A stretch of 53,925 bases of DNA, taken from a virus (taxonomy: Duplodnaviria; Heunggongvirae; Uroviricota; Caudoviricetes). Position 1 is the first letter of the stretch. Each line of letters starts with the position of its first letter. Shown here piece after piece: positions 32,903 through 51,192 of this stretch. The stretch lies in IMG/VR virus record IMGVR_UViG_3300017971_007904. One strand, written 5' to 3'. A program made the position numbers and the translations under genes. Below the pieces are notes generated by a model, which searched no databases, was not told the origin of the DNA, and saw only the letters and a program-made list of their open reading frames with translations.

Positions 32903-32904
32903 CC

Positions 32905-33095: not shown

Positions 33096-33099
33096 TTTC

Positions 33100-33197: not shown

Positions 33198-33200
33198 TTT

Positions 33201-33272
33201 TGGCTGATAGTGTAATTGGAAGCACGACTGACTTTGAATCAGTTAGTGGAGGTTCAAGTCCTCCTTGGCCAG
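33201..33272 (+). tRNA. tRNA-Gln(UUG)
   Basis: Cloverleaf, U1-A72. Confidence 0.93.
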
Positions 33273-33295
33273 CTTGCTGTTCGTTCAATAACCAA

Positions 33296-33365
33296 AGGGG
33301 TGGTACCCTAGGTAGGACGCCGCTGTGATGGCGGAAATATGGGTGTCACCAAATCCCGTACAGCA
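33296..33365 (+). pseudogene. Degenerate tRNA-like element
   Basis: Residual anticodon-like (cgccg/tggcg) and T-like (atggg/cccgt) arms. Confidence 0.25.
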
Positions 33366-33370
33366 AATAC

Positions 33371-33448
33371 AGGGGGGATGTTGCTGGGACAACAGGCGGT
33401 CTCCAAAGCCGCTGCTTTCGCTGTGGGGTTCGATTCCTCTCCTCCCTG
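33371..33448 (+). tRNA. tRNA-Trp(CCA) with 11-nt variable region
   Basis: Cloverleaf; variable region tgctttcgctg. Confidence 0.82.
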
Positions 33449-33477
33449 CTTTTTCTTCGATGTGCGGTAAATAGAGC

Positions 33478-34053
33478 ATGGGACTCCTGCCTGAAACCGC
33501 CGCTTTTGAGAAACATATTTTCAAGCGTCTGGGTATTCGTTTGATGGGTCTTCGGATGTGCGAACTGGGCAATCAGATGCTTATGGGATCGATGGGGCGA
33601 GGCGCAGCCAAGTTTCGGTATTGCTCCCATGGTGCGATCCACGTCTCTATCGATTGGAATGGCAAATCAGGAGCCATTCCCTTTGATCTCCAGAAACCTC
33701 TTCCTCGTATTTTCCATAGATGGTTTCAAGTTGTGACGGACTATGGAACTTTGGAACATGTGCAGACCCAGTATCCGGCTTGGAAGAACGTCCACCAACT
33801 ATGTGCTTATGGTGGAATCATGATTCATGTTCTACCCTTAATAGGTCGCTGGCATGGTCATGGTCTGCATCACTTTTCACAGGAGATAATGGACAAAATA
33901 GGGAAGGCGTGCTCATACCAGATTATTGAGAATACGATAATCCCTTCCTCGAAGGTCAAGCCTCAAGTGGCAACTGTCTATCGAAAAACTCGAAAGAGCA
34001 CTTTTCCGTCGAAGGAAATCTTTGACAAGATAGAGATTCCCCCGGCGACGTAA
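33478..34053 (+). CDS. Class I SAM-dependent methyltransferase
   Basis: MCELGNQ; SIDWNG; VVTDYGTLEHV; GGIMIHVLP. Confidence 0.75.
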   Translation: MGLLPETAAFEKHIFKRLGIRLMGLRMCELGNQMLMGSMGRGAAKFRYCSHGAIHVSIDWNGKSGAIPFDLQKPLPRIFHRWFQVVTDYGTLEHVQTQYPAWKNVHQLCAYGGIMIHVLPLIGRWHGHGLHHFSQEIMDKIGKACSYQIIENTIIPSSKVKPQVATVYRKTRKSTFPSKEIFDKIEIPPAT

Positions 34054-34125
34054 CTCCTCATAGTTCAACGGATAGAATACGACCCTCCGAAGGTCATGAT
34101 GTTGGTTCGATTCCAACTGAGGAGA
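34054..34125 (+). tRNA. tRNA-Arg(CCG)
   Basis: Cloverleaf. Confidence 0.9.
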
Positions 34126-34137
34126 CTAGATACCCAC

Positions 34138-34644
34138 ATGAGATTCAGATTGTGGGTAGAAACGATTGTTCACGAAGACGAACATGTAAGGATTCGGGAC
34201 GCTGAAGCTTCCGATATTCCCGAACTCTTCACGCACAAGACTGAAGACGTTGAGGACATCCTCGCTATCCAACAGCAGGGATTCAACCTTAGGAAGTTCG
34301 GCCAGACATCGAGAAGGTTCCGCAGCCCCGCCTATCTTACAGAATACGACCCAAAGGGCGTTTATGCTACGGCTGGTGGTGGGGAAAGTTTAAGCCCGTA
34401 TGATAAACGACCTTATGTGGTCTTCAGAGCAGACATCAACAAAGCTCTGGTTCTGGAAGAGAAGACACATCAAGAGAATCCTAAGCAAGTTCTGTCTGAG
34501 TTGTACGGCGGCAAGACCGGCGCACAACTGAGAAACGCCTTGATGAAGGACGGTTACCAAGCTGTTCTTCGCCCCGGCAGTGAACAAATCATTCTTGACC
34601 CATCGATTATCACAATCGTATCAGTGGGTAACACATCCTCGTAG
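34138..34644 (+). CDS. Capsid-targeted protein, possible ADP-ribosyltransferase-like fold
   Basis: MRFRLWVE; GVYAT...GYQAV...EQIILDP pattern; start 5 nt after TAGATA. Confidence 0.6.
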   Translation: MRFRLWVETIVHEDEHVRIRDAEASDIPELFTHKTEDVEDILAIQQQGFNLRKFGQTSRRFRSPAYLTEYDPKGVYATAGGGESLSPYDKRPYVVFRADINKALVLEEKTHQENPKQVLSELYGGKTGAQLRNALMKDGYQAVLRPGSEQIILDPSIITIVSVGNTSS

Positions 34645-34707
34645 CTCAGCGGATAGAGCACTAGTTTGCGGAACTAGTTGTCGCTGGTTCGATTCCAGCC
34701 GGGGATG
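34635..34707 (+). tRNA. tRNA-Arg(GCG)
   Basis: Cloverleaf; rare anticodon. Confidence 0.9.
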
Positions 34708-34712
34708 CTTAC

Positions 34713-34785
34713 GCTCCCGTAGCTCAATGGACAGAGCAGCACGCTTCTAACGTGACGGTTGTGGGTTCAAATCCTACCGGGAGTG
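34713..34785 (+). tRNA. tRNA-Arg(UCU)
   Basis: Cloverleaf. Confidence 0.93.
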
Positions 34786-34787
34786 CT

Positions 34788-34916
34788 TGCGGGGTAGTGT
34801 AATGGCTAGCACGCTTTACGTGTTTCACGCCCTTATTGTCTCTTATCAGAGAATGCTCAGTGGAATTACATTGGTATTCGGAACCAGTAGAGCAGGTTCG
34901 ATTCCTGCCCCCGCAA
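34788..34916 (+). ncRNA. tRNA(UCG)-like gene with a 57-nt insertion between D-arm and anticodon arm
   Basis: tgcgggg/ccccgca acceptor; gtgt/gcac D-stem; insertion 34814-34870; ttggt-AU-UCG-GA-accag; T-arm intact. Confidence 0.6.
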
Positions 34917-34922
34917 CTTTTT

Positions 34923-34995
34923 GCCCCGTTAGCTCAATGGATAGAGCGCCAGTCTTCGGAACTGGATGTTGGGAGTTCAAGTCTCTCACGGGGTG
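34923..34995 (+). tRNA. tRNA-Arg(UCG)
   Basis: Cloverleaf. Confidence 0.93.
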
Positions 34996-34999
34996 CTTT

Positions 35000-35072
35000 G
35001 GGACATTGGTGTAACGGTGAAGCACACGACCCTTATAAGGCCGAAGACAAGGTTCGATTCCTTGATGTCCTA
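35000..35072 (+). tRNA. tRNA-Ile(UAU)
   Basis: Cloverleaf with one anticodon-stem mismatch; rare anticodon. Confidence 0.8.
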
Positions 35073-35669
35073 CTTGAGTTCGCACGAGAACCCGAACTGT
35101 TTGATGAGCTTAGCGTATCGCTTTGCGACAAAGTCCCGAGTTCTCCGGTTGTAGTACTGGGTGAAGTGCTTGTGGCGTGAAGTGTTGCATCTCGGCAACT
35201 CTGTTGTATCGATACCCAGCTTCTCGCAGACCGTATCAAAATCTTCTTGCAGTTGGTCAAATTGGATGAAGTAGTCCATTCGTTGTTGGCCATCTATCTC
35301 GAAGAAGCGTTGGTATTTGGCATCTGTGAACCAAAGGTTGGATAGGATGTATTCCGAGAAGGTATGAGTTCGGCAGAACTTGTTTAGGCACCACCAGTAT
35401 GGGTTTCGTCTCCACTGCCGGATACTACCTTTGTATTGCCTGTTGAAGAAGTAGGCAGACACTTCTACATCCCAAGGGTTTCTGATAACGGTGAACTTGA
35501 AGTAGTCGTCAATGATCTCTGGGCCATACTTCGCTAGATACTCATAAAGGCGACCATGGTGTCCGTGTCGCACGGTTGACGTGTTCTCATTACCGAGTGC
35601 GTGTTGAATCGAAGTACCACCAGTCTTTGGAATGTGAATGAATATGAATTTGTGATTGTGGCAGATCAT
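35070..35669 (-). CDS. Sulfotransferase family 2 protein
   Basis: FIFIHIPKTGGTSI; IRNPWDVEVSAY; FDQLQEDF. Confidence 0.9.
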   Translation of the reverse strand: MICHNHKFIFIHIPKTGGTSIQHALGNENTSTVRHGHHGRLYEYLAKYGPEIIDDYFKFTVIRNPWDVEVSAYFFNRQYKGSIRQWRRNPYWWCLNKFCRTHTFSEYILSNLWFTDAKYQRFFEIDGQQRMDYFIQFDQLQEDFDTVCEKLGIDTTELPRCNTSRHKHFTQYYNRRTRDFVAKRYAKLIKQFGFSCELK

Positions 35670-35673
35670 TTTC

Positions 35674-35701
35674 TAAAGTTTCGATAATTCAATGTCGATA
35701 C
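35674..35701 (+). promoter_or_regulatory. Sigma-28-like promoter candidate
   Basis: TAAAGTTT-N12-GTCGATAC, a few nt upstream of ATG 35708. Confidence 0.6.
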
Positions 35702-35707
35702 ATAAGT

Positions 35708-36250
35708 ATGGAAACTTATGTAGATAGTGTCGGTCATAAGCGAAAAGGCATCAAGGTGAGTTGTCACACTTGCCAAAAATCATTTCTAACTCGAAAAGAT
35801 CAAGCTGCTCGATATTGCTCTAGGAAATGTTTTCATAGTGCCCAACGACGTAGAGTGACACATAATTGTGCTTATTGTGGCAAATTATTTGAGCTACGGC
35901 AGTCACGTATCTCTAAGAGTGGTTTGCACTGCTGTTCTAAAAAGTGCAAGGATCGGGCTCAGCGTATAGGTGGTGTTACCAAAATGCTTCCAAGCCATTA
36001 CGGCACAGGGAGTAGTTCGGCTTCATATCGAGCCGAATACCATCGCTTGACGGGTCTGGAAAAATTGGCGTGTGGTCGCTGTGGTTACGATGAATTTGAA
36101 TGTGGTATTGATATACATCATTTAGACAGCGATAGGCAAAATAATAAGAAAGAAAATCTATTTGCCTTGTGTGCGCCATGCCACAGGGCCTTACATAATG
36201 GGTTGTGGCAGATAGAAAACGGGGGTGTAGCTCAACTGGGAGAGCGCTAG
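35708..36250 (+). CDS. HNH endonuclease with N-terminal zinc-finger repeats
   Basis: CHTC..YCSRKC; CAYC..CCSKKC; CGRCG...IHH...N...LCAPCHRALH. Confidence 0.85.
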   Translation: METYVDSVGHKRKGIKVSCHTCQKSFLTRKDQAARYCSRKCFHSAQRRRVTHNCAYCGKLFELRQSRISKSGLHCCSKKCKDRAQRIGGVTKMLPSHYGTGSSSASYRAEYHRLTGLEKLACGRCGYDEFECGIDIHHLDSDRQNNKKENLFALCAPCHRALHNGLWQIENGGVAQLGER

Positions 36251-36293
36251 TCTGGCAGACTAGAGGTTGCGGGATCGTACCCCGCCACCTCCA
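36221..36293 (+). tRNA. tRNA-Ala(GGC)
   Basis: G3-U70; T-loop AUCGUAC. Confidence 0.9.
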
Positions 36294-36369
36294 CCTTTCG
36301 ACCCTGTGTTGGAGGAGCCCACCACTTACGAGCCGGGTTCAAAGCTCGGTAGGGTCGGATACATATAGC

Positions 36370-36981
36370 ATGTTCGACAAAAAACGACGCCAAGAAGAAC
36401 TTCGGGACTGGCTCACAAACGATGAGGACTACCGTCGTTACGAGTACTCAGTATCTAGGAAGCCCATCTTCTTTGATTTGGGCGCATTCAAGGGACAGTG
36501 GTCTCGACGAATGGTTCGTAAGTACGGCGGCGTCTCGCACATGTTTGAGATTCAGCCACCGTTAATTGGTCGGCTTAAACGAAGATTTCGTCCTCCGCAC
36601 TTCTTTGTCCACCCTTTCGGTTTAGCAGACAAAAACCTGCGAACCGAGGCCATGCTGTCACACAGGCCGGATGCATGTAGCGTATTTGGGTGTGGCTGTG
36701 GGTCACGCATCAAGGTGAGACTTCTTCGTATGGCGGATTGGGTGAGGTCGGATATCGATGTTTGTAAGATCAACATCGAGGGGGCTGAGTACGATTTACT
36801 GGAACACATGCTTGAAGAAGATGTAGTTGGTCTTTGCGAAAACATTCAAGTCCAGTATCATTGGCAGTATGACGTTCCTGACTTTGATAATCGGCGACGG
36901 AAGATCAGAGAGGCTTTGAGCCAGACACATGAATTGACCTACGACTACTACTACGTCTGGGAGAACTGGAGGAAGAGATGA
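36370..36981 (+). CDS. FkbM family methyltransferase
   Basis: FFDLGAFKGQW; IDVCKINIEGAEYDLL; IQVQYH. Confidence 0.9.
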   Translation: MFDKKRRQEELRDWLTNDEDYRRYEYSVSRKPIFFDLGAFKGQWSRRMVRKYGGVSHMFEIQPPLIGRLKRRFRPPHFFVHPFGLADKNLRTEAMLSHRPDACSVFGCGCGSRIKVRLLRMADWVRSDIDVCKINIEGAEYDLLEHMLEEDVVGLCENIQVQYHWQYDVPDFDNRRRKIREALSQTHELTYDYYYVWENWRKR

Positions 36982-37238
36982 TTTGTGAGCTTTGCGAGCG
37001 ATACATCGCTTCTTCTTTCCATCATTTTATCCCAAAAACGGTCCATTCCAATAAATGGTTCAAGAAACGCTTCTCCCGTGCCGATATGAGTGAGGGGATC
37101 GATGTTTGTCGGGATTGCCATCATGCGATTCACGATACGATCCCAAAAGAAAAGGACCTCGCCAGGGACTTCAATACGATTGGGAAATTGAAGAATCACC
37201 CTCAATTACGGAAATACCTGAAGTGGAGGAAGAGATGA
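36978..37238 (+). CDS. Small HNH-family protein
   Basis: CELCER...HHFIPK...VCRDCHHAIH. Confidence 0.8.
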   Translation: MICELCERYIASSFHHFIPKTVHSNKWFKKRFSRADMSEGIDVCRDCHHAIHDTIPKEKDLARDFNTIGKLKNHPQLRKYLKWRKR

Positions 37239-37408
37239 AGATAACTTTTGAGGTAACGTCCGAAGAAGCGAAATGGCTGAAAAGCGATTTGGGACTTTTG
37301 AGTGAGATGGCGCATGACGGCGAATACGATGAAGATGGCAAGCGTGAATCGCTATACGCCAGACTTCACTTATTAGTCTGGAAGCAGATGAAGGAAGAAG
37401 ATGCCTAG
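37235..37408 (+). CDS. Hypothetical protein
   Basis: Coupled ORF, GGAGG SD. Confidence 0.55.
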   Translation: MKITFEVTSEEAKWLKSDLGLLSEMAHDGEYDEDGKRESLYARLHLLVWKQMKEEDA

Positions 37409-37625
37409 TCCCAGAAAGAACAAGAGAAGCATCTTGACCAGGGAACAGTTGGAGGCGCTTACAACGCCAAGACTGCTCGCTTATCGCAACTCATTACTTC
37501 GGAATTACGAAGATGAAGGGTGGGGTGATCCTCCTGAATGGCATAAGCAACATCCGGAGTGGAAGGCCCACTACGCAATGGTCAAAGAGATTTTGGCCGA
37601 AAGGCCCCATGTGGAGAAGAAGTGA
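37401..37625 (+). CDS. Hypothetical protein
   Basis: Coupled ORF. Confidence 0.6.
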   Translation: MPSPRKNKRSILTREQLEALTTPRLLAYRNSLLRNYEDEGWGDPPEWHKQHPEWKAHYAMVKEILAERPHVEKK

Positions 37626-37785
37626 CATGTTCTACCTGAAGCTTTTGCTCATCGTAGCGGTATTTGGCTTGTGCTTCTTTTATCGTAAGGAGCATGTGTA
37701 CAACAAACCAAGTTATCGAAAACGTAGAAAATAAGCGGCCCTATATAAGAAGATTCAATTCTCAAAAAATCGAAAGGAGAATGAC

Positions 37786-37989
37786 ATGCCTGGACGTGAC
37801 AAAACGGGTCCTGATGGAAAAGGACAAGGTACTGGGAGAGGGATGGGAGCTTGCGGCGGCGGAAAAGCTTATGGTCGAGGCCAAGGCAAGCGTTGCGGCC
37901 AAGGCCGTGGCCGTGGCCGTGGCCGTGGTTGCCAACAAGTTCCGGATCAAGATGATAAGAAGGACGACGCAAAAAACGACAAAACTTGA
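37786..37989 (+). CDS. DUF5320-like Gly/Arg-rich protein
   Basis: MPGRDKTGPDGKGQGTGRGMGAC...GRGRGRG. Confidence 0.75.
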   Translation: MPGRDKTGPDGKGQGTGRGMGACGGGKAYGRGQGKRCGQGRGRGRGRGCQQVPDQDDKKDDAKNDKT

Positions 37990-38019
37990 TCCAACCGTTA
38001 CAAAACACTGATCTGCTTG

Positions 38020-38085
38020 TTGGAGCGGGTCATGACGTGTGAGAGGAATGCTGGTTGGAATACATTTCTACCCCCGCTTGCCAGA
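38020..38085 (+). ncRNA. Small structured RNA carrying the shared AATGC..GGAATACATT hairpin
   Basis: agcggg/cccgct closing stem; aggaatg/catttct hairpin. Confidence 0.35.
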
Positions 38086-38093
38086 AATTTTAC

Positions 38094-38165
38094 GGGGGTA
38101 TGGTGTAATGGCGCACGCCCGGTTTCCAACACTGGGAGGAGCGGGTTCGATTCCCGTACTTAATG
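38094..38165 (+). pseudogene. Degenerate tRNA-Gly(UCC)
   Basis: D- and T-arms intact; 9-nt anticodon loop; acceptor only partly paired. Confidence 0.55.
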
Positions 38166-38200
38166 ATCTAGTCATACTTTTGTCCTCATATCACACGTAT

Positions 38201-38272
38201 TGCCTGATGGTGTAATTGGTAGCACGCATGGTTCTGGCCCATGAAGTTGGGGTTCAAATCCTCATCGGGCAG
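38201..38272 (+). tRNA. tRNA-Gln(CUG)
   Basis: Cloverleaf. Confidence 0.93.
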
Positions 38273-38285
38273 CTTGGAGGTAGTG

Positions 38286-38489
38286 ATGACATACGAAGAA
38301 GCTAAAAGGCGTTGCCACGTCCGGTCGGCCATCCGTAGGAAGGGCCAACCGGACATTCTGTACTGGAAGAACCATCCGGTTCCACTAGACGTGCGAGTAC
38401 CAGACATTCAGAAGATCGCTAACGATTGGGAAGAGTACGATCCTCGTGAAGAGCCAGGGTGCTCTGCGTATGAGGAGACACCAGCATGA
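38286..38489 (+). CDS. Hypothetical protein
   Basis: GGAGGT SD. Confidence 0.6.
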   Translation: MTYEEAKRRCHVRSAIRRKGQPDILYWKNHPVPLDVRVPDIQKIANDWEEYDPREEPGCSAYEETPA

Positions 38490-38761
38490 ACATCAATCAT
38501 CTCGAAGGGTACTTCAGTAGCCCAGAAGATGACCTTAGTGCAGCAATTACATCGCCGATGTTTCGGTGCGATGTGTGCAAGGCTGAGGTGCCGGATGCCC
38601 TTTGTTTGGCGGGCCATATAGGTCGCCACGGGTTTCGGATGCACCACTGCCAGCATCATACATACGAAGAGGTTTTGGAAACGATTCGCCAGATACCCAT
38701 TCAGAACAAAGGGTGGCTAGAAGGTGGAGAGCGTATGCCATCTCGCATGGAAGTAGGATGA
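38486..38761 (+). CDS. Hypothetical protein with CxxC/HxC residues
   Basis: ATGA overlap. Confidence 0.55.
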   Translation: MNINHLEGYFSSPEDDLSAAITSPMFRCDVCKAEVPDALCLAGHIGRHGFRMHHCQHHTYEEVLETIRQIPIQNKGWLEGGERMPSRMEVG

Positions 38762-38794
38762 ACTGGCATGGCGGGGTATTGAGTCTCCGCACAC

Positions 38795-38868
38795 AGGCGA
38801 TTAGCTCAGTTGGCTAGAGCGCCACGTTTACACCGTGGATGTCAGGGGTTCGAGTCCCTTATCGCCTA
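38795..38868 (+). tRNA. tRNA-Val(UAC)
   Basis: Cloverleaf. Confidence 0.95.
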
Positions 38869-39089
38869 CTATGACGGATATCGACAAAAATGTTCTCAAG
38901 AGTTTTGTGTGGGCAAGTCTTTATCTTCTCACGCTTTTGGGACTTGCTATTTGGATACTGAAGTGAAACGGAAAAACACCTTCAAAGTTGTGATAGGTGG
39001 TATTTTCGGTTTCCTTACCCAGTGTCTATTTTTCGTCTTGGCTTTGATTATTGTGATAGTACTTTGGATCACATCATCAGAAGATTAAC

Positions 39090-39162
39090 GGGGTCGTAGC
39101 TCAACTGGGAGAGCGCCTGCCTTGCACGCAGGAGGTTGCCGGATCGTTCCCGGTCGACTCCA
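39090..39162 (+). tRNA. tRNA-Ala(UGC)
   Basis: G3-U70; T-loop AUCGUUC. Confidence 0.9.
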
Positions 39163-39166
39163 CTTC

Positions 39167-39238
39167 GGGCCGTTAGCTCAGTGAGAGAGCGCCACGCTCG
39201 CATCGTGGAGGCCGTGGGTTTGAATCCCACACGGTCCA
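39167..39238 (+). tRNA. tRNA-Ala(CGC)
   Basis: G3-U70; T-loop UUUGAAU. Confidence 0.88.
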
Positions 39239-39243
39239 CTTTA

Positions 39244-39316
39244 GCCCTCGTAGCTCAGGGGACAGAGCACAAGTTTCCTAAACTTGGTGTCGCAGGTTCG
39301 ATTCCTGCCGGGGGTA
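39244..39316 (+). tRNA. tRNA-Arg(CCU)
   Basis: Cloverleaf. Confidence 0.95.
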
Positions 39317-39643
39317 CTAACTTCGTACCGTGAAGACGGGCTCACCAGCAATAACTGGTCCGTCATAGAAGTACTCACCAGGGTTATACGCCTCAAACAG
39401 TTGATCGGCGGGGACTCTGGCTCGTAGGACGTGGGCGTCTTCGCCTTCGACGGCAGCGACGTGTGCTGCGTGATCTTTGGCGAACTTGTAGCTCAGGGTC
39501 ACATAGTCCATTGGTTTGAAACTAGCTTCAGTGGCTACAGCGCCACGATAGATTGAGGCATTCCTGCCTTGATATTGGGGATCGACTTCAGGTAGTGGTC
39601 TACCTTTTTGTCGGCTCATTTCTAACCATTGCTTGAACTGCAT
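39317..39643 (-). CDS. Capsid-targeted ADP-ribosyltransferase-like protein
   Basis: MQFKQWLEM; IYRG...DYVTLSYKFAKDH...EYFY; start 4 nt after TAGATA. Confidence 0.65.
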   Translation of the reverse strand: MQFKQWLEMSRQKGRPLPEVDPQYQGRNASIYRGAVATEASFKPMDYVTLSYKFAKDHAAHVAAVEGEDAHVLRARVPADQLFEAYNPGEYFYDGPVIAGEPVFTVRS

Positions 39644-39657
39644 GGTTTATCTATTAC

Positions 39658-39752
39658 GGGGGTGCGCCTTTTGGGGCGTCGTTTCTGCATCCTTTGTCGA
39701 GCAATCGAATGCAAGCGGGAATTACATTAAAGTTCGATTCTTTACACCTCCA
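39658..39752 (+). ncRNA. Aberrant tRNA-like RNA
   Basis: gggggtg/cacctcc acceptor plus A; T-arm taaag-ttcgatt-cttta; no standard anticodon loop; carries the shared GGAATTACATT motif. Confidence 0.5.
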
Positions 39753-39766
39753 CTCGTAACTAAGGC

Positions 39767-40513
39767 ATGATACCAAATGCCTTTCACTTCGTCTTCTTCG
39801 GTAATCGAAAGTATGACTTTGGGTTGCTAGAGTATCTGGCCATCAAATCCGCCCAGGACGTAAACCGTCCTGAGCGGATTTACTTCCATACCAATCGTGA
39901 ACCTGATACGATCTGGTGGGACCGCATCAAAGAACATGTGACGGTAGTCCCTACTGACGTACCCACTCACATCTTTGGTAAGGAACTTTTCTGTTGGCAA
40001 CACCGGTCTGATATCACTCGGTTGCAGAAGTTGTATCGGCACGGTGGCATTTACATGGACTTCGATACGTTGTGTCTACGTCCATTCACCGACCTTCTTC
40101 ACCACCCGTGTGTTCTTGGTCGGTGGTATGGAAAGCAAGAGGCGGTATTCAATGCGGTAATCTTATGTGAACCACAGTCCAAGTTCATTAGATTGTGGTA
40201 CAACACATACCGCATGTTCTCACCACACGAGTACACAGAGCAATCATCAAAGGTTCCCACCCGGCTGATTCGAGATGCCCGTGTGAAACCTCACATTCAC
40301 ACGCTGGAACCGGGTTTGATCTTTTGTGCGAAAACTGAGAAGCTCCGTTTGTTATTTGATTCACCAAAGACCGATTTGCTAGATGACGCCTACTGTATTC
40401 ACTACAACCGCACATTGAATAAGGACGGCTTCTTGGCTCAGGTTGACGAGGAATACATCCGCACGGCGGACACCGTTTTCGCCAAAATAGCGAGGAAACA
40501 CCTCGGGCAGTAG
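39767..40513 (+). CDS. Glycosyltransferase family 32 (DXD sugar-binding)
   Basis: HRSDITRLQKLYRHGGIYMDFD; FNAVI. Confidence 0.9.
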   Translation: MIPNAFHFVFFGNRKYDFGLLEYLAIKSAQDVNRPERIYFHTNREPDTIWWDRIKEHVTVVPTDVPTHIFGKELFCWQHRSDITRLQKLYRHGGIYMDFDTLCLRPFTDLLHHPCVLGRWYGKQEAVFNAVILCEPQSKFIRLWYNTYRMFSPHEYTEQSSKVPTRLIRDARVKPHIHTLEPGLIFCAKTEKLRLLFDSPKTDLLDDAYCIHYNRTLNKDGFLAQVDEEYIRTADTVFAKIARKHLGQ

Positions 40514-40577
40514 CTCAGCCTGGAAGAGCGTCCGGTTCGGGGCCGGAAGGTCGCTGGTTCAATTCCAGTCTGCCCGA
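40504..40577 (+). tRNA. tRNA-Pro(CGG)
   Basis: Cloverleaf. Confidence 0.93.
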
Positions 40578-40622
40578 CTTTGACTTAGACTTAGAAATGT
40601 CGCTGTGGTATGATATTTTGGC

Positions 40623-40650
40623 TCAAGATTTCGACGGGTTTTGTCGATTT
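40623..40650 (+). promoter_or_regulatory. Sigma-28-like promoter candidate
   Basis: TCAAGATT-N12-GTCGATTT. Confidence 0.45.
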
Positions 40651-40671
40651 ACAGAATAAAGGAGAGATTTC

Positions 40672-41277
40672 ATGCCATGGTTAGAGCAGAAAACGTATGA
40701 CATCGAGAGGGACCTGGGTGAGTGCATTGCCAGCGATCTTTCCGTGGACGCCCTGGTTCAGATGGTGATACAGCATAGCAACAAGGACATGTCCTTTTTC
40801 CCGTCATGCTTCGGTTTCCATTGGGGTAAGCGCAATGAATCCAGAGACCGTGGGCTCCTGCGGTGCGAACATATCGATTACCCACTAAAGGAATTGTTTG
40901 AGCAGATTTGCTCAGTGGGCGTCAAACTTGATCAGATCGATGCCATCGTGGGTTTTGGCTCTGCTTTTCGTGGTGCCAAGAATCCTGATGATTTGGATAT
41001 CATGGTTGTGACTAATGCCCACGAGGGATTGTATCATCTCACCCTACCGGAGATGGATATACGCAATGGCGGTTACGGCAGTTGGTGGGGTGTCGTCACT
41101 CGGAAACATGCTTTGCATCTGTTCGTTTCCTCGGGGATAAAGTTTCACGAGGCGTTGGAAGCGGGCGAGAGTGAACCTAAGAACATCATTAGAGAAGGAG
41201 TTTTGATATACGGGCAGTTCGGTACCCCTCGGGAAGCCGTTTGGTACGGGAAGAATTACATGTGTGACTGCCGGTAA
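40672..41277 (+). CDS. Nucleotidyltransferase domain protein (Pol-beta superfamily)
   Basis: IVGFGSAFRG...PDDLDIMVV. Confidence 0.75.
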   Translation: MPWLEQKTYDIERDLGECIASDLSVDALVQMVIQHSNKDMSFFPSCFGFHWGKRNESRDRGLLRCEHIDYPLKELFEQICSVGVKLDQIDAIVGFGSAFRGAKNPDDLDIMVVTNAHEGLYHLTLPEMDIRNGGYGSWWGVVTRKHALHLFVSSGIKFHEALEAGESEPKNIIREGVLIYGQFGTPREAVWYGKNYMCDCR

Positions 41278-41304
41278 ATGGAGGAACAAACTAAATTAGA
41301 GTAT

Positions 41305-41378
41305 CAGTGTGTAGCTCAGTCGGGTAGAGCGCTAGGTCGGGGGCCTAGAGGCCGGTGGTTCAAATCCACTCACACTGA
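41305..41378 (+). tRNA. tRNA-Pro(GGG)
   Basis: Cloverleaf; C at position 33. Confidence 0.88.
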
Positions 41379-41484
41379 CTTTGGCCTGATCGGGTTCCAA
41401 CCCCGACTTGCCACTGTGTAAGGTGCGCTCCGTAAAGGGGGGATTCATAGGTACCAAGACGCCGGGTACCTCCCCAGCACCGTC

Positions 41485-41558
41485 GCCGACGTAGCTTCAA
41501 CTGGTAGAGCACCTGTTTCGTAAACAGGGGGTTGTGGGTTCAAGTCCCACCGTTGGCT
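41485..41558 (+). tRNA. tRNA-Thr(CGU)
   Basis: Cloverleaf. Confidence 0.93.
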
Positions 41559-41567
41559 TTTGGAGGA

Positions 41568-41741
41568 ATGATGCACGATAGTTATCAACAAGCACTAGAG
41601 AACGAGAGGTACGTGAAGAGTAAGTCGGGGTCTGGCAAAGGTGATCGGCCTCGCAAGATCAACCACAAGCGTTATCGTGAGAGTTGGGAGCGTATCTTCG
41701 GGAAGAAGAAAGAAGATGAAGAGGACAAAGACAAAGGGTGA
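41568..41741 (+). CDS. Small basic hypothetical protein
   Basis: GGAGG SD; GKGDRPRKINHKRYRESWERIFG, of a kind often seen in phages. Confidence 0.65.
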   Translation: MMHDSYQQALENERYVKSKSGSGKGDRPRKINHKRYRESWERIFGKKKEDEEDKDKG

Positions 41742-41892
41742 GTACCGTTGCTCGAAGCATGGGGCGGTTGAGTTGCATACCATTGTCGAGATAGACGAAT
41801 GGGGTTTGGCTCACGGTTTGAGTGTGTGCCCCAAATGCGGACGACCAACATTGTATTCGACGCCATCGGTGATTGAGGAGAAGAATGGGTAA
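41716..41892 (+). CDS. Small zinc-ribbon-like protein
   Basis: CSKH...CPKC. Confidence 0.5.
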   Translation: MKRTKTKGEYRCSKHGAVELHTIVEIDEWGLAHGLSVCPKCGRPTLYSTPSVIEEKNG

Positions 41893-42124
41893 GAAGCGAT
41901 TTTCGGTAGACAAGGCTGAATGGAGTGCGGAGAGAGAGGAGTTCTACAGGGAACATTGTGAGGATATCGCTTACCAATCCGGATCGGTGGTAGTCGAGCG
42001 AGACGGCAAGGTTTACATTGACGGAGACGTGTTGAGTGAAGGAAAGAGGAAGTGGTACCAAGCGTGGTTGAAGTTCAAAGGCTTACCCGACCTTGGTTAC
42101 ACAGGGAAGTACCTATATCATTAA
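41885..42124 (+). CDS. Hypothetical protein
   Basis: GAGGAG SD. Confidence 0.6.
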   Translation: MGKKRFSVDKAEWSAEREEFYREHCEDIAYQSGSVVVERDGKVYIDGDVLSEGKRKWYQAWLKFKGLPDLGYTGKYLYH

Positions 42125-42249
42125 CGAAGGGGAGTTGTCATGCCTTGGTGGGGATGGTTGATTATGGGAATCGTTGTCGGCGGTTTTGTTGTCGGCGGTT
42201 TGGTAGCAACTTGGTTCATTGCTACGTTAGCTAGCATATTTACGAGATA

Positions 42250-42323
42250 GGGCCGGTAGCTCAGTTGGGAGAGCGCCACGTTGACATCGTGGAGGTTCAC
42301 AGGTTCGAGCCCTGTTCGGCCCA
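42250..42323 (+). tRNA. tRNA-Val(GAC)
   Basis: Cloverleaf. Confidence 0.93.
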
Positions 42324-42336
42324 CTTGGAGGAAGAG

Positions 42337-42528
42337 ATGCGAATTGAAACTGTTTGGATAGTATCAGCCGTTTTTTGGGCGACCGCAGCAGCGGTCGTTT
42401 TCGGGGTGTCAATTTACTACCAGAAGTGGTTGTGGATAGTGTTATCGGGGATGTACTTGTTCCTCTATCTACCATGCCAGTTCATGCGGTTTCGGGAAAT
42501 CGTGAAAGAGAAGGAGGGGGGCGATTAG
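42337..42528 (+). CDS. Small membrane protein
   Basis: GGAGG SD; two hydrophobic helices. Confidence 0.65.
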   Translation: MRIETVWIVSAVFWATAAAVVFGVSIYYQKWLWIVLSGMYLFLYLPCQFMRFREIVKEKEGGD

Positions 42529-42592
42529 CTCAGGCGGTTAGAGCGCTATCTTCACACGGTAGAGGCCATTGGTTCGAGCCCAATATTGCCCA
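42519..42592 (+). tRNA. tRNA-Val(CAC)
   Basis: Cloverleaf. Confidence 0.92.
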
Positions 42593-42714
42593 CTCATAAC
42601 GGGTTAGTTCAAACGCTTAGAACGCTGTGCAGATTGTGGAGGCTTTGTCACCCCCACTCGCTGAAGATCATAGCCGGAAATGTTGGTTGGAGCCCAGCAC
42701 CCGTTACTTACACA

Positions 42715-43311
42715 ATGAAGATCACAGTCGTAACAGGATTTGACAAAGGGTACAGTTCGCTTGGCGAGTTCACCGCTGAGCGAAACATGAAGTATGCTCG
42801 TGAACATGGTTACGACTTTGCCATGTATCAGCGCCGCTGGAGTCAGCGGCCACCATCATGGGACAAGATACTTTTTGCACAACAACAGTTACGGTACTGC
42901 GATTGGTTGTTTTGGATTGATGCTGACGCCATTGCGACTCGACCTATTGACGATTTGGTGGAGCATCACAAGTTTTTGGTGGTAGGATCGAACCGGAGGG
43001 ACCGTTTGAACTTTGGCATGTTCCTTTTGAGGAACTGTCGTTTGAGTTATCAGTTCCTGAAGGACGTATGGGGACAGGTGCAGTTCATTGATCATTTTGT
43101 ATGGGAGCAGCGAGCCGTCGCTCACATTACAGACATTTACCGGGAGAAGAAGAGGAAGAAGAATCCTTACTACAAAGCCATGAAGCTTTTGCCGTATGGT
43201 GAACTGTGGTGCCATCCTGGTGATCTTGTTGGTGGTGCCCGTGCGGTCCATGCCGCCAACTGCGAGTCGATTGAGAATAGACGTAAACTTTTGGGAGAGT
43301 TGTTTGATTAG
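42715..43311 (+). CDS. Glycosyltransferase family 34 (GMA12/MNN10-like)
   Basis: YAREHGYDF; WDKI; WLFWIDADA; NFGMFLLRN; WEQRA. Confidence 0.88.
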   Translation: MKITVVTGFDKGYSSLGEFTAERNMKYAREHGYDFAMYQRRWSQRPPSWDKILFAQQQLRYCDWLFWIDADAIATRPIDDLVEHHKFLVVGSNRRDRLNFGMFLLRNCRLSYQFLKDVWGQVQFIDHFVWEQRAVAHITDIYREKKRKKNPYYKAMKLLPYGELWCHPGDLVGGARAVHAANCESIENRRKLLGELFD

Positions 43312-43383
43312 CCGCCATAGCTCAGACGGAAGAGCGTATCCCCGGTAAGGATAAGGTCGTGAGTTCGATTCTCACTGGCGGCT
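43311..43383 (+). tRNA. tRNA-Thr(GGU)
   Basis: Cloverleaf; C at position 33. Confidence 0.9.
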
Positions 43384-43396
43384 CTTGGAGGATGAG

Positions 43397-43651
43397 ATGG
43401 ACGAATTTTTGAAAGTGCTCGACAAGTTGAAGGAACCGAAGTTGTTTGGTCTCGTTGTTGTCGCCATGATTTGTTTAACGGTAATGTTCGTGAGTTGTTG
43501 TACACTGTGTTCGATGGGAGATAAGTATAGGTACCAGTGGCTCGAAGAACGTGATAAGGCTTTACACAACAACTTTTGGGACGAAAAGGAGAAACCCGAT
43601 GTCGACACAAAAGAAGATCACTCAGCTAGTCCGTGGGACACTAGACCTTGA
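43397..43651 (+). CDS. Small membrane protein
   Basis: GGAGG SD; one hydrophobic helix. Confidence 0.55.
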
Positions 43652-43835
43652 CGATAGCGTCGAGCTAACGCCCGAAACGGACCTGACCACCCTCGGAGCC
43701 GATTCCCTTGACCTCGTTGAGTTGGTCATGGAGATCGAGGAAGAGTTCGATGTTGACCTGCCCGACGAGGAAGCCAACAGTTACAAGACCATTGGCCAGA
43801 TTGTAGAACAGGTGGACCATGCATCCGATTCTTAA
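43599..43835 (+). CDS. acpP: Acyl carrier protein
   Basis: [21 protein letters not shown] phosphopantetheine site; AAGGAG SD. Confidence 0.92.
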
Positions 43836-44151
43836 ATACATCAAAGTATCCGGACTCTTCATGGCTGAGTGCGTTAAAGGTCATTATGACAATGTTCCAT
43901 TTACGCATGAAGAATGGATTGCTTTCACGCACGATCTTCACGAGAAGCTGAAAGACAGGGAGTTGGACTTCAGCGACGATCTGATCGTCTGTAAGGTGAT
44001 GCCGTTTGAAGTGGAAGGAGAGGACTTCGTCCTTCGCTTCCTCGCCATGTTCGAGGAAGCTCATGTGCTCGTCACACGCCAACTCCATCAGGAGAACTGG
44101 CCGGAAGAGACACCGCAGGACGATGAAGCATACAAGGGCTTACCAAATTGA
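43819..44151 (+). CDS. Hypothetical protein
   Basis: Coupled ORF. Confidence 0.6.
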
Positions 44152-44187
44152 CATTGGTAAGAGCGTCGACCTAGTGTCGGCGCATAC

Positions 44188-44261
44188 AGCGACGTAGCTC
44201 AGCGGAAGAGCGGGAGTTTCATAAGCTCTGTCAGTCGTGGGTTCAAATCCCACCGTCGCTA
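44188..44261 (+). tRNA. Elongator tRNA-Met(CAU) (Ile2 not excluded)
   Basis: Cloverleaf, paired 1:72. Confidence 0.85.
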
Positions 44262-44318
44262 CTTTGTCTGCGTCGGAGCGTAGATAGTATAGGTTTTCTA
44301 ACAACGAGGAGCCGCAAA

Positions 44319-45002
44319 ATGGTTGCTACAAAGCATCGAAGAAAGAAGCTTCGTGGGTACTGCGCCGATAGCGACAGGCAGCACCGTTGCGCCATCCGCA
44401 ACCGGCGTCTACTCGTGATCAACCGAAACTACCAGCCGATTGGCACAATGACCTTGAAGAACGCTGTCAACAAGCTCTTCAAGGAGGTTGCTGTCATCGT
44501 GCTGCCGCCCGGCAACGGGTCAGACGTATGGCAGGAACTGACCTGGGACATGTGGGCTGACTTGAAGCCTCGTGACGGTGAGACTGTACTTGGAGCAGCC
44601 CAAAGGGTGTTCCGGATTCCAGAAATCATCAAGATCAAGGATTTTGCCGATGTACCGCAGCGAAAGGTCAAGCTGAGCCGTCGAGCCATCTACAAGCGAG
44701 ACGACTACACTTGCCAGTACTGTGGTCGGCAGGCCCCGAAGGACATTGCTCCTGACGAGTTGTCCATCGACCACGTCCTGCCCAGAGCGCAGGGTGGAAC
44801 AACTGAGTGGGATAACGTTGTCCTGGCGTGTCTTGCGTGTAACCGTAAGAAGGACAACAGAACTCCAGAGCAAGCTCATATGGCTCTTTTGAGAGAGCCG
44901 GTGATGCCGCACTACGACATCCTCCAAGGAAGGATGATAAGAGTCGATTCGTGGGCTCACTTCCTGGGTGACTGCTACTGGGAGGTTCCACTTCGAGACT
45001 AA
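44319..45002 (+). CDS. HNH endonuclease (McrA/HNH_5-like)
   Basis: LVINRNYQPI; RRAIYKRDDYTCQYCG; SIDHVLPRAQGG; NVVLACLACNRKK. Confidence 0.92.
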   Translation: MVATKHRRKKLRGYCADSDRQHRCAIRNRRLLVINRNYQPIGTMTLKNAVNKLFKEVAVIVLPPGNGSDVWQELTWDMWADLKPRDGETVLGAAQRVFRIPEIIKIKDFADVPQRKVKLSRRAIYKRDDYTCQYCGRQAPKDIAPDELSIDHVLPRAQGGTTEWDNVVLACLACNRKKDNRTPEQAHMALLREPVMPHYDILQGRMIRVDSWAHFLGDCYWEVPLRD

Positions 45003-45089: not shown

Positions 45090-45116
45090 CACCATTTCAA
45101 CAAAAAGGAGAAGATC

Positions 45117-45880
45117 ATGAGTAAGCAAAATCGGAGGTATCTTTAGTAATGAGAAACACTTGAAGAGAGGGTGTCTTTAGCCTTTCCGGCGCTAAGGAGA
45201 TCATCCTTGAGATTCGGGCCGGTGAAGGTGGAGAAGATTCCAAACTCTTCGTTCATGATCTTTTCTCTGCGTACACTAAGCGTGCGCAACATCTTCACCT
45301 CAAGGCCGAACTTCTCGATTCATCTAAGGGTAGCGTCACGGCCAAGGTCTCTGGTAAGGGCGCTGGCAAAGCTTTCCAGCACGAAGGAGGTAAGCACATT
45401 GTTCAGCGGGTACCCCCAACGGAAAAGAAGGGGCGACGGCAGACATCGGTGATATGCGTAACTGTCTTACCGATGCCGCCGAAGCACGAATTGAAGTTGG
45501 TTCCGGAGAACGAGATTGACATCACCTTTTCAGTCGGCCAAGGTCCTGGTGGTCAGCATAAGAACCGGACTGAGTCGGCGGTAAGGATGGTACATAAGCC
45601 TACCAAGCTCCAGGTGTACCTGGACGGTGGCCGGTGCCAGCATCGTAATCGAGCGGAGGCGCATCGCATCCTCTCGGCGAAGGTGAGTCAGTTCAAGGCC
45701 GAACAGGAGCAAGCTGCCTACGATGCGATCCGGAAGGCTCAGTTCAAAGGAACTGGTCGTGGTGACAAGATTCGTACCTACAACTTCATCAAATCCAGGG
45801 CTGTGGACCACAGGACTGGGAAGAAGACGAAAAACGTCAAGGAGGTGATTGAGAAAGGTCGATTTGATCTATTAGAGTGA
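45117..45880 (+). CDS. prfA: Class I peptide chain release factor, RF1-type, lacking domain 1, translated via two +1 frameshifts (~253 aa)
   Basis: EIILEIRAGEGG; VQRVPPTE (PxT); GPGGQHKN (GGQ); KIRTYNF; no ATG/GTG/TTG in frame before the conserved block; AAGGAG SD at ATG 45117. Confidence 0.88.
45132..45180 (+). promoter_or_regulatory. Tandem prfB-type programmed +1 frameshift cassettes
   Basis: CGG AGG TAT CTT TAG (45132-46) and AGA GGG TGT CTT TAG (45166-80); internal SD, 3-nt spacer, CUU, stop. Confidence 0.88.
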
Positions 45881-46069
45881 TCGTCCGGACCACCGCTCTC
45901 CGGAGAGGAAGGTCAGGCCAACTCCGCTTAAGGTAGGAGGGTTCGCCCGCTTGCACTACCGAGGTTGCAACGCAAACAGATCGAGGGGGTGAGCGGCCCT
46001 ATGAGATCGGGTAGCGGCCAACAGATAAATGGTGGTCACGAACAGAAGCCTGCCTATGAGACGATTCTC
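45875..46069 (+). ncRNA. rnpB: Minimal RNase P RNA (catalytic domain with remnant S-domain)
   Basis: P1, P2 gaccacc/ggtggtc, P4 aggUcaggc/gcctgcct with bulged U, P5 caac/gttg then CAA, P6 ccgctt/gagcgg, P7 ggtag/ctacc, P15-L15(GGU)-P16-P17, AGATAAAT and ACAGAA conserved strands. Confidence 0.92.
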
Positions 46070-46109
46070 AACCACCACCCCCGGCGAGGCCGGGGGTGGT
46101 GGTTTTTTT
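46069..46109 (+). terminator. Rho-independent terminator, direct-repeat copy 2
   Basis: Same 37-nt hairpin with a 7-U tract. Confidence 0.9.
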
Positions 46110-46146
46110 GTGCGCCCATCCTACATATTTCAACAGGTAGGTGGTG

Positions 46147-46989
46147 ATGTATTCATTCTCACAGTGGTTATTTCTTACCGAGGCAGAATCCCGGCGACAG
46201 CAGGTCAGGTTTCAGGACATTGGCCAGCGCATCGAATACGGCAAGGTGATCGAGGCCAGGATCAAGCGGGTGCTGGAACAGGAATACGGTTGGCAGATCG
46301 CTGATGTTACTACCAGGGAGGACAAGTACGAGAAGGTCGATGGCCTCGTCAGGCAAGCGGATCAGCGGGTTCCCGTTCCTCTCCCCGCATACATGCAGGT
46401 GAAGTATCGTGACACTGGTGACGATCTATTGTTGGAGGTGGTGTGGGAGCTACCGGCAGGCGCTGAGCGGATGGATATCGACGAATTGCTTACGGGCCGG
46501 GACATGCGTGGGAAGGCTCAAATCTACGTGAATCTCAATCAGGCCGGGAATCTGATCCGGGTGCGGAGTGCTGAAGAGGCTAAGAACATAGCCAGGATGA
46601 TGCTTGAGCAACTACTCGCTTCTGGGAGGCAGTCGTTGCGTGTTGGATCGAACGAGATCAAGATTGTTAAGGACCCCAGAGATCAGCGGCTCAAGGTCAA
46701 TGCATTCATCTCGCCCGAGTCATTCAGTTGGAAGGCCGACTACCCCGTTAGTGAAGACATGTGGGCCGAACCCGAGCTTACCGTCGAGCCCCAACCATTC
46801 CCATCTGCGCCGAAGGGCCTTTCCCCACAGATGCTGGCTCAGTTGGAGATAGCGATCAACCAGGGGTCGTCGGCAATGCCCAAGCCAAACAACATGAAGA
46901 AGGTGAAGGCGTTACAGAAGTATGCAGGTAAGAGGGGCGTGGATGTAGCGGTGTCGGGGAACCAGCTTGTGTTGCAGAGGGTGTCTTAG
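46147..46989 (+). CDS. Capsid-targeted PD-(D/E)XK nuclease-like protein
   Basis: MYSFSQWLFLTEAE; E...DKYEKVDG...MQVKYR; TACATA at 46122-27. Confidence 0.65.
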   Translation: MYSFSQWLFLTEAESRRQQVRFQDIGQRIEYGKVIEARIKRVLEQEYGWQIADVTTREDKYEKVDGLVRQADQRVPVPLPAYMQVKYRDTGDDLLLEVVWELPAGAERMDIDELLTGRDMRGKAQIYVNLNQAGNLIRVRSAEEAKNIARMMLEQLLASGRQSLRVGSNEIKIVKDPRDQRLKVNAFISPESFSWKADYPVSEDMWAEPELTVEPQPFPSAPKGLSPQMLAQLEIAINQGSSAMPKPNNMKKVKALQKYAGKRGVDVAVSGNQLVLQRVS

Positions 46990-50403: not shown

Positions 50404-50436
50404 CCTTTGGTATTAGTGCCAAAAGCTCGTACAAGG

Positions 50437-50474
50437 AAACCCACCCCCGGCTTTCGCCGGGGGTGGGTTTTTTT
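50437..50474 (+). terminator. Rho-independent terminator
   Basis: aaacccacccccggc-tttc-gccgggggtgggttttttt. Confidence 0.9.
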
Positions 50475-50481
50475 ATTGACT

Positions 50482-50510
50482 TTGATCTACAACCTTTTCT
50501 CAAGTAAAAT
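50482..50510 (+). promoter_or_regulatory. Sigma-70-type promoter
   Basis: TTGATC-N17-TAAAAT. Confidence 0.5.
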
Positions 50511-50550
50511 GGCTCTTATTGTCGATGGTAAGAATAGGGAGTCTCATTGG

Positions 50551-51192
50551 ATGAGTCGCCGATTAGATTACAAACGATCAGCCTATCGTCAGCACCCTTA
50601 TTGTCATTTTTGCGATAAAAGGGTGAAGAAACGACAGTGCTCGGTCTTTTTCATTAAAGCCAACGGCAAGCCGATTCGTATCTTGGCTTGTCGACAGTGT
50701 ATTAGTCGGCATCGGAGCCTGCTTTTGCCGGAAGGGCGGGTATACAATCTTCAACAATTCCGGCATGAAATTTGGGAGCATAACCCTTACTGCCATTACT
50801 GCTGGCAAAGGTTGCCGATATTTGAAGAAACGACACTGGATCACGTCGTACCAGTGTCGAAAGCGGGCCAGGATTTTCCTGATAACTTGGTGCTTGCTTG
50901 TGAGAAATGTAATCAACAGAAGAAAAATAAGTCGTACATTAAGTTCTTTAATGAGACGAAATGGCTAAGGAGAGGTAAACAGATGAAGAAGAGTGACAGT
51001 TACTACCTGGGTCGCAACTGCGATATGGGTTGTTTTGTAGACCCGTGGCCCGGTAGTCTTCAGGCCCGCAATCTCGATATCCAATTACGGGCATATAGGT
51101 TGTGGGATCAGGCTGGGAGACCCGAAGGCAAGGATTTAGATTTCTGGCTCCGGGCGGAACGAGAATTTGAAGACATGGTACAAGGTTGGTGA
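50551..51192 (+). CDS. HNH endonuclease in frame with a C-terminal DUF2934-like domain (internal start likely at 50983)
   Basis: CHYC...TLDHVVP...NLVLACEKCNQQK; IQLRAYRLWDQAGRPEGKDLDFWLRAEREF. Confidence 0.75.
   Translation: MSRRLDYKRSAYRQHPYCHFCDKRVKKRQCSVFFIKANGKPIRILACRQCISRHRSLLLPEGRVYNLQQFRHEIWEHNPYCHYCWQRLPIFEETTLDHVVPVSKAGQDFPDNLVLACEKCNQQKKNKSYIKFFNETKWLRRGKQMKKSDSYYLGRNCDMGCFVDPWPGSLQARNLDIQLRAYRLWDQAGRPEGKDLDFWLRAEREFEDMVQGW

Follow-up and report, generated by a model that had tools for sequence, protein, structure and literature searches.

A conserved family of probable miniature bacterial-type RNase P RNAs on large mobile elements

We analysed a 53,925-nucleotide (nt) stretch of viral DNA (IMG/VR record IMGVR_UViG_3300017971_007904; "the window" below means this whole stretch) and found that its plus strand carries, at 45875-46069, a gene for a miniature RNase P RNA of 195 nt, counted from P1 to P1. 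The RNA is almost certainly a conserved, minimal homolog of bacterial RNase P RNA, judging from its covariance-model match and from covariation in a family of relatives. It is very likely a real and selectively maintained, miniaturised form of the type A molecule. An initial annotation, made from the sequence alone, had already identified it as an RNase P RNA of bacterial type whose catalytic domain is intact, and both the model match and the family-wide covariation agree with that identification.

RNase P RNA belongs to the small number of universal ribozymes, and its two-domain design, in which a catalytic domain is joined to a specificity domain (S-domain) that reads the tRNA elbow, is textbook knowledge. 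To our knowledge, natural loss of the specificity half is known only from one archaeal family. The RNAs described here represent a bacterial-type loss of this second half, conserved across dozens of large mobile elements. We found no published report of an RNase P RNA in a bacterial virus in the full text searched, most subscription journals lying outside that search. The conserved mini-RNase P family is apparently undescribed, and an earlier report could exist.

Results

A class A RNase P RNA reduced to its catalytic half

At Rfam gathering thresholds the window yielded 38 tRNAs and a GOLLD RNA, and no RNase P RNA. A permissive Rfam search of positions 45700-46250 gave a single strong match there, to the bacterial RNase P class A model RF00010 at 45877-46072 (48.5 bits, E 5.6e-14); the match is global and spans model positions 1-367. 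Such a search had been proposed together with the initial annotation, a lack of any hit being named as a result that would speak against it. In the alignment the S-domain block keeps 18 of its 110 nt and the P18 block 1 of 23 nt, and P3 is shrunk. As RF00010 is the best match and is below threshold, Rfam 15 has no dedicated model for such RNAs, and standard annotation misses the mini genes because of their sub-threshold scores.

All three conserved blocks, CR-I (GAGGAARGUC), CR-IV (AGAURAAUG) and CR-V (ACAGAA), were found in the window RNA. The CR-I block (45905-45918; this and all features below are on the plus strand) consists of the J3/4 sequence GAGGAA followed by the 5′ strand of P4 (45910-45918), and CR-V (46042-46055) of ACAGAA followed by the P4 3′ strand (46048-46055), so that the P4 helix forms between the CR-I and CR-V strands with U45913 bulged. 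CR-IV (AGAUAAAUG) lies at 46023-46031. The 5′ strand of P1 (45875-45885) pairs with 46060-46069 and encloses the TGA stop codon (45878-45880) of the upstream open reading frame (ORF), the overlap that had been noted for the RNA 5′ end. P2 is a 7-bp helix formed by 45888-45894 and 46031-46037, and P3 (45896-45905) is a 3-bp hairpin, closed in the window by a UCCG tetraloop and in relatives by GNRA or UUCG. P5 pairs 45919-45922 with 45964-45967. The P6 pseudoknot joins J5/7 to L17, pairing CCGCU at 45924-45928 with AGCGG at 45992-45996. The sequence GCAA at 45967-45970 comprises the final base of P5 and J5/15 (45968-45970), and contains the equivalents of E. coli A248/A249. The remaining arm is made of P15 (45971-45973 with 46014-46016), P16 (45979-45982 with 46005-46008) and P17 (45985-45988 with 45997-46000); the 3′ side of L15 reads GGGUA (46009-46013), its GGU occupying 46010-46012. 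The catalytic helices paired by hand in the initial annotation, including P4 with its bulged U and P6, are all correct and correctly placed.

The entire specificity-domain remnant is confined to 45932-45960. It comprises P7 (45932-45936 with 45956-45960), one 10-nt hairpin, GGG-UUCG-CCC (45939-45948), and a conserved 7-nt 3′ bulge (45949-45955) with the family consensus G-Y-U-U-G-Y-A. The bulge might, speculatively, adopt a T-loop-like fold. Reduction of the S-domain to P7 and a single hairpin, as proposed from inspection, is thus seen in the covariance-model alignment as well. P8-P14 and P18 are lost from the window RNA, and just 6 nt separate P15 from CR-IV in the place of P18. Single-sequence minimum free energy folding of the window RNA was uninformative (z = -0.78), as expected for a pseudoknotted RNA.

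Covariation across 43 homologs

Relatives were sought with a search pattern in which CR-I, CR-IV and CR-V follow one another at the close spacing of the window RNA. The pattern matched 9 stretches in IMG/VR, 49 in JGI metagenome contigs and 2 in prokaryote genomes, a set of about 185,000 genomes with one genome per species (596 Gb). By our own arithmetic, which takes 25 fixed bases, two two-fold positions and 651 spacing combinations, about 0.2 matches would be expected by chance in that genome set. Removal of duplicates left 43 distinct homologs of 197-244 nt from viral and metagenome contigs. A separate scan of viral contigs with the exact 18-nt CR-I motif returned 37 loci, all of them in one unrelated protein-coding gene, and was discarded.

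Unguided folding of seven homologs with RNAalifold recovered P1, P2, P3, P5, P7, the single S-domain hairpin and P15-P17, and compensatory double changes were present at 27 of the 47 pairs of this alignment. A covariance model built from it, R1, scored all 43 sequences at 30-216 bits; the window RNA, with 205 bits over 45875-46072, is near the top of the family. When the 43 sequences were aligned by fitting to R1, 95.9% of pair cells formed, in comparison with 70.2% after column shuffles and 32-44% when the partners were slid by 1-3 columns, and double changes were found at 37 of 47 pairs.

The support extends to individual helices. In P1 all 8 modelled pairs have changed on both sides across the family, and in P2 98.3% of cells are paired, with double changes at 5 of 7 pairs. 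Pairing reaches 98.4% in P3 and 97.7% in P5, where 3 of 4 pairs covary. The two S-domain helices, P7 and the remnant hairpin, are paired in 98.9% and 99.1% of cells, and the covarying P15-P16-P17 arm (45971-46016) in 93-99%. The two weakest 'helices' of the RNAalifold structure are those that it invented in place of the P4 and P6 pseudoknots. In a direct test, all 341 P4 cells were paired, three pairs showing G-C/A-U/C-G exchanges, and so were 155 of 158 P6 cells, two pairs showing compensatory CG/UA/AU exchanges; slid controls for both fall to 9-57%. Three further elements lie outside the search pattern: J5/15 GCAA is invariant (43/43), L15 GGU is kept in 41-43 of the 43 sequences, and the P4 3′ strand is near-invariant throughout.

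The family varies in size. Shorter forms of about 155-160 nt, lacking any S-domain remnant, are present in viral contigs, and some longer viral relatives keep a hairpin at the class A P18 position together with the same reduced S-domain. The window RNA is one step in this size series rather than its extreme, and the description 'ultra-minimal' given in the initial annotation was overstated.

Elements that carry the RNA

Among the 43 members, 24 lie within 500 nt of a tRNA gene, in several cases with a gap of only 0-8 nt, and the nearest tRNA is on the same strand as the mini RNA in every locus that has one. Five carrier viral records contain exactly one RNase P RNA match each, always to the mini form. 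One of them, a genome of 184 kb that bears terminal repeats, is estimated as 100% complete, and another record, of 476 kb, as 98% complete. Larger variants of 285 and 240 nt occur in two 100%-complete huge-phage records (527 and 533 kb), and one family member, distinct from the window copy, matches a 642-kb uncultured phage record in GenBank. A blastn search of the window region against INPHARED phages and PLSDB plasmids gave nothing useful. Clustering of ORFs within 3 kb of 45 family loci gave no candidate for a dedicated protein partner, as no protein family was common beyond close relatives.

A full-length RNA was found in a 100-kb viral contig (IMGVR_UViG_3300029915_000731, hereafter L003). 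This 387-nt class A RNA (1116-1502, 182 bits) sits among 12 tRNA genes and adjoins an ArfB-like gene. L003 and the mini carriers together indicate that phages carry both full-size and reduced forms of RNase P RNA.

Cellular genomes are nearly free of the mini form, with 2 matches in about 185,000. One is on a 6.8-kb contig binned with a Planctomycetia metagenome-assembled genome, beside three tRNAs. The other belongs to a cultured bacterium, Achromobacter anxifer LMG 26857 (NZ_CAHLAR010000005.1, ~14076-14299; L113:6074-6299), and is inside a 32-tRNA array; the same strain also keeps a normal 405-nt RNase P RNA (202 bits). The neighbours of the array encode a TrwB/TraG-type coupling protein, a GyrB-like protein, an RNA ligase and a thymidylate synthase (ThyA). 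The coupling protein and these other neighbours suggest that the carrier is a conjugative element or megaplasmid and no obvious prophage.

tRNA genes of the carriers

In most carriers the tRNA genes encode CCA (24/26, 28/28, 27/27, 22/22, 12/13, 8/8, 8/8 and 9/10), and they prefer U at position -1. The tRNA genes of L003 follow the same trend, with CCA in 12 of 12. Since this is also true of an element with a full-length RNA, the CCA and U-1 preferences are consistent with processing by the mini RNA and do not discriminate it from other situations.

The initial annotation had suggested that loss of the S-domain might make the enzyme tolerant of altered T-loops in the window tRNAs. Odd T-loops do exist in the window: 5 of 38 deviate from UUCRA (CUCGAAC, AGCGAAG, AUCGUAC, AUCGUUC and UUUGAAU), in one Lys, one Asn and three Ala tRNAs (Lys-UUU, Asn-GUU, Ala-GGC, Ala-UGC and Ala-CGC, starting at 28962, 30681, 36221, 39090 and 39167). 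In eight other tRNA-rich loci, seven of mini-RNA carriers and that of L003 with its full-length RNA, 181 of 186 tRNAs have the canonical UUCRA and 5 deviate. With just 5 of 38 in the window against 5 of 186 elsewhere, the rationale is weak: T-loop tolerance cannot explain the family, and might at most be a local benefit. In two of the odd-T-loop tRNAs A54 faces U58, possibly as a swapped reverse-Hoogsteen pair.

Surroundings of the window copy

The gene immediately upstream (45449-45880, plus strand) encodes a 143-amino-acid ArfB-like protein with an RF-1/GGQ domain (PF00472, E 1.5e-25). The RF-1 domain and the stop codon of this ORF are confirmed, and its start within the 45104-45880 region is uncertain. 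Relatives of the gene, with 43-73% identity, are found in eleven IMG/VR contigs. The contig with the closest one (L001, 73% identity) has no mini RNA downstream of the gene or elsewhere in its 51-kb fragment, and linkage to ArfB is therefore not a feature of the family. At the corresponding place in L001 (3430-3580) there is non-coding sequence in which GGCCGGATT motifs recur, and two terminator-like hairpins come after it. In the window, an intrinsic terminator (46070-46104, plus strand), composed of a 16-bp stem with 12 G-C pairs and then a T run, lies directly 3′ of P1. The gene downstream of the mini RNA has a 37%-identical relative in a 533-kb phage.

The presumed substrates are encoded by an array of 40 tRNA genes called by ARAGORN, all on the plus strand, at 22388-44262. 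Three of the calls are unusually long, Val of 91 nt (22388-22478), Pro of 87 nt (28242-28328) and Trp of 79 nt (33371-33449), and may reflect introns, insertions or false calls; neither the Val nor the Trp call has a counterpart among the Rfam tRNA matches. Within the array lies the GOLLD RNA (31425-31880, plus strand; RF02032, 190 bits), with a tRNA-Glu embedded at 31491-31563. Two HNH endonuclease genes (44319-45002 and 50407-51192, plus strand) flank the region, which fits mobile, homing-type shuffling around the tRNA array.

A search with 20 large ORFs of the window gave no match to the phage hallmarks capsid, portal and terminase. Its matches were a sigma factor, enzymes of sugar modification, sulfotransferases, a Ro60/TROVE-like protein and the two HNH endonucleases. 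A tblastn search of phages with a 1180-amino-acid window ORF found nothing. The Ro60/TROVE-like protein (11672-13429, plus strand) matches PF25045 vWA_Ro60 (1.4e-12), PF05731 TROVE and phrog_850; proteins of this type are usually partnered with Y RNAs or tRNA-like YrlA RNAs. The carrier is a large mobile element, most likely a large phage. The label 'phage' in the initial annotation is thus a likely one by inference, set against the lack of capsid or terminase genes among the 20 ORFs and the one family member that sits beside conjugation genes in a bacterium.

Discussion

The above results suggest that the mini RNA is probably an active tRNA-processing enzyme. In the mechanism that we propose, transcription of the RNA would accompany or closely follow that of the upstream gene and would end at the terminator at 46070-46104. 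P4 and P6 would fold it into the RNase P active site, and it would bind RnpA of the host, which we propose as the partner because the carrier phages encode none. The 5′ leaders of the element's own pre-tRNAs would then be cut off in trans. As the tRNA elbow cannot be read without a specificity domain, substrates would be recognised at the acceptor end, by the acceptor stem, positions -1 and 73, pairing of the 3′ tail with L15 and the grip of the protein on the leader.

Several lines of evidence argue for such an activity. The J5/15 adenosines and L15 GGU are needed for substrate handling, not for protein binding, and the near-invariance of GCAA and of GGU therefore favours an enzyme over a mere protein sponge. 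The presence of the mini RNA as the sole RNase P RNA of carrier records, and its same-strand tRNA context, support a role in processing. In addition, the parts kept and lost by the natural RNA match those of an engineered catalytic domain, which needs a P6-like pairing and does not need P18.

A number of observations weigh against this interpretation. The RF00010 score of 48.5 bits is well below the gathering cutoff of 100 bits, a shortfall due to the deleted or shrunken P3, specificity-domain and P18 blocks. The invariance of CR-I, CR-IV and CR-V among relatives is not independent evidence, since these blocks were demanded by the search pattern. P3 in the window is just 3 bp long, and P3 of full-size RNAs lies near the protein site. 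RnpA (PF00825) was found in none of the five carrier records, the 10 control genomes being positive and the window itself only partly scanned for RnpA; a holoenzyme would then need a cross-species partnership. The window copy lies outside the tRNA array, the last tRNA ending 1.6 kb upstream, and has no convincing promoter, only one weak sigma-70-like site with its start inside P1, of a kind that occurs at chance rate. Finally, none of the 39 window tRNA genes scored encodes CCA. The proposed pairing of L15 GGU with tRNA RCCA accordingly stands on the side of the ribozyme, where the GGU is in place, and lacks an encoded partner in the window. The window tRNA genes scored (27471-44262) have C74 in 37 of 39 cases, and their commonest trailer is C-U-U (24 genes), an unusual uniformity that may matter for 3′ processing or for L15 pairing. 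Unless the tRNAs receive CCA ahead of 5′ cleavage, pairing with the L15 GGG would be partial in the window, limited to a single Watson-Crick pair and perhaps G-U wobbles.

A different proposal is that the RNA is a decoy or sponge, a catalytic-domain-like molecule that captures host RnpA (or pre-tRNAs) and thereby shuts down or redirects host tRNA maturation. In bacterial holoenzyme structures RnpA binds CR-IV, CR-V and the P2-P4 area, and the window RNA retains all of these regions; the carrier phages have no RnpA of their own. Loss of the S-domain lowers the catalytic efficiency of engineered RNAs (PMC5839562), and a possible decoy role has been considered for a poxvirus RNase P-like RNA (PMC3001073). 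A decoy, however, leaves unexplained why L15 GGU and the J5/15 adenosines are near-invariant and why the bulged-U geometry of P4 is so nearly constant and its pairing perfect, and the same-strand embedding in tRNA arrays fits processing better. Moreover, in Achromobacter the mini RNA coexists with a normal RNase P RNA on an apparently resident element, where poisoning tRNA maturation would be costly. We therefore regard a decoy as unlikely.

Retained activity mainly on substrates other than ordinary pre-tRNAs, namely tRNA-like or hairpin structures in transcripts of the element such as the GOLLD RNA with its embedded tRNA, mRNA-tRNA junctions or the RNA's own flanks, seems more doubtful still. 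It would agree with the ability of S-domain-less RNase P RNAs to cleave simple hairpin-loop model substrates (PMC5839562), with the presence of such a GOLLD RNA in the window and with the position of the window copy after a protein gene and not between tRNAs. Across the family, however, tRNA genes are the only consistent neighbours, GOLLD does not generally accompany the RNA in the loci examined, and no alternative substrate was found. The RNA could also be imagined as a decaying, functionless remnant of a captured host rnpB, given its score under the Rfam threshold, the deletion of about half of the molecule and the full-length phage copies (L003, 182 bits) that could have served as starting material. 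Yet 43 distinct sequences share the deletion boundaries, pair at 96% with compensatory changes and keep the two pseudoknots as well as the invariant nucleotides of catalysis; the window copy is near the top of the family (205 bits), and complete carrier phage genomes have no RNase P RNA besides the mini form. The covariation effectively refutes decay, which we consider highly improbable.

If the mini RNA is indeed an active tRNA-processing enzyme, a more far-reaching view can be entertained. A fully functional, elbow-blind ribozyme and a tRNA array could form a self-contained, horizontally mobile module for tRNA supply, present in large phages and in at least one conjugative-type element, which would borrow only RnpA from the host or would act alone. 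We offer this as a tentative extension, somewhat less probable than not. Were it true, tRNA maturation of the element would be independent of the host RNase P RNA and might tolerate substrates that the host enzyme handles poorly. The mini RNA would also be the first known case in bacterial viruses of an 'enzyme gene' for a trans-acting ribozyme, and would show by natural experiment how little RNA a bacterial RNase P needs. The family more generally offers structural and kinetic studies a minimal bacterial RNase P of natural origin, suggests that large phages may carry tRNA-processing capacity besides tRNAs, and raises the question of how a cleavage site is selected when the elbow is not read. 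With its copy of the RNA, cultured Achromobacter anxifer LMG 26857 provides a system accessible at the bench.

The closest full-size relative is the bacterial type A RNA (RF00010; E. coli M1 RNA, rnpB), with which the window RNA shares P1-P5, P6, P15-P17, the bulged U of P4, CR-I, CR-IV and CR-V, the J5/15 adenosines, L15 GGU and a 7-bp P2. It differs in its size, about 195 nt as against 350-400 nt, in having lost P8-P14 and P18 and in its 3-bp P3. The mini RNA is carried by mobile elements beside tRNA arrays, whereas the type A RNA is the product of the cell's single essential gene.

Archaeal type T RNAs naturally lack most of the S-domain, and cells live with them (PMC3579882). Like the window RNA, they occur naturally, have kept the catalytic domain, have mostly lost the specificity domain and are missed by standard Rfam models. 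The type T core is archaeal, with a 3-bp P2, a shortened P15 and several archaeal proteins, and belongs to the cell's own enzyme (PMC3579882). In contrast, the P2 of the window RNA has 7 bp and its core is that of bacterial class A, with P6 and L15 GGU, in what is an accessory gene. The likeness to type T is convergent and does not amount to membership.

In the laboratory, an engineered E. coli catalytic domain without the S-domain (Eco CP RPR) cleaves both with and without protein (PMC5839562). Efficient cleavage by this construct relies on a P6-like pairing; with the S-domain gone, P18 makes no contribution (PMC5839562). The window RNA similarly combines a type A catalytic domain with the lack of a complete S-domain, retains P6 and has no P18. 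Unlike the construct, it is a natural RNA from a conserved gene, and it retains P7 and one hairpin. Reduced RNase P RNAs are also known from bacteria of the Candidate Phyla Radiation; these lack P12, P13, P14, P18 and sometimes GGU, and score below Rfam thresholds (PMC8172020). They are cellular and single-copy and keep part of the S-domain, whereas the window RNA has lost P8-P14 and keeps GGU.

Among viruses, the poxvirus RNase P-like RNA shares with the mini RNA that it is virus-encoded and related to RNase P RNA (PMC3001073). It comes, however, from a eukaryotic virus, has a nuclear-type likeness and has been considered as a possible decoy, not as an enzyme, and its sequence and context are unrelated to those of the mini RNA. 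Theta (HDV-like) ribozymes lie within tRNA regions of phages and are implicated in tRNA maturation (PMC10879173). Theta ribozymes are small and self-cleaving, whereas the mini RNA is related to RNase P, an enzyme that acts in trans.

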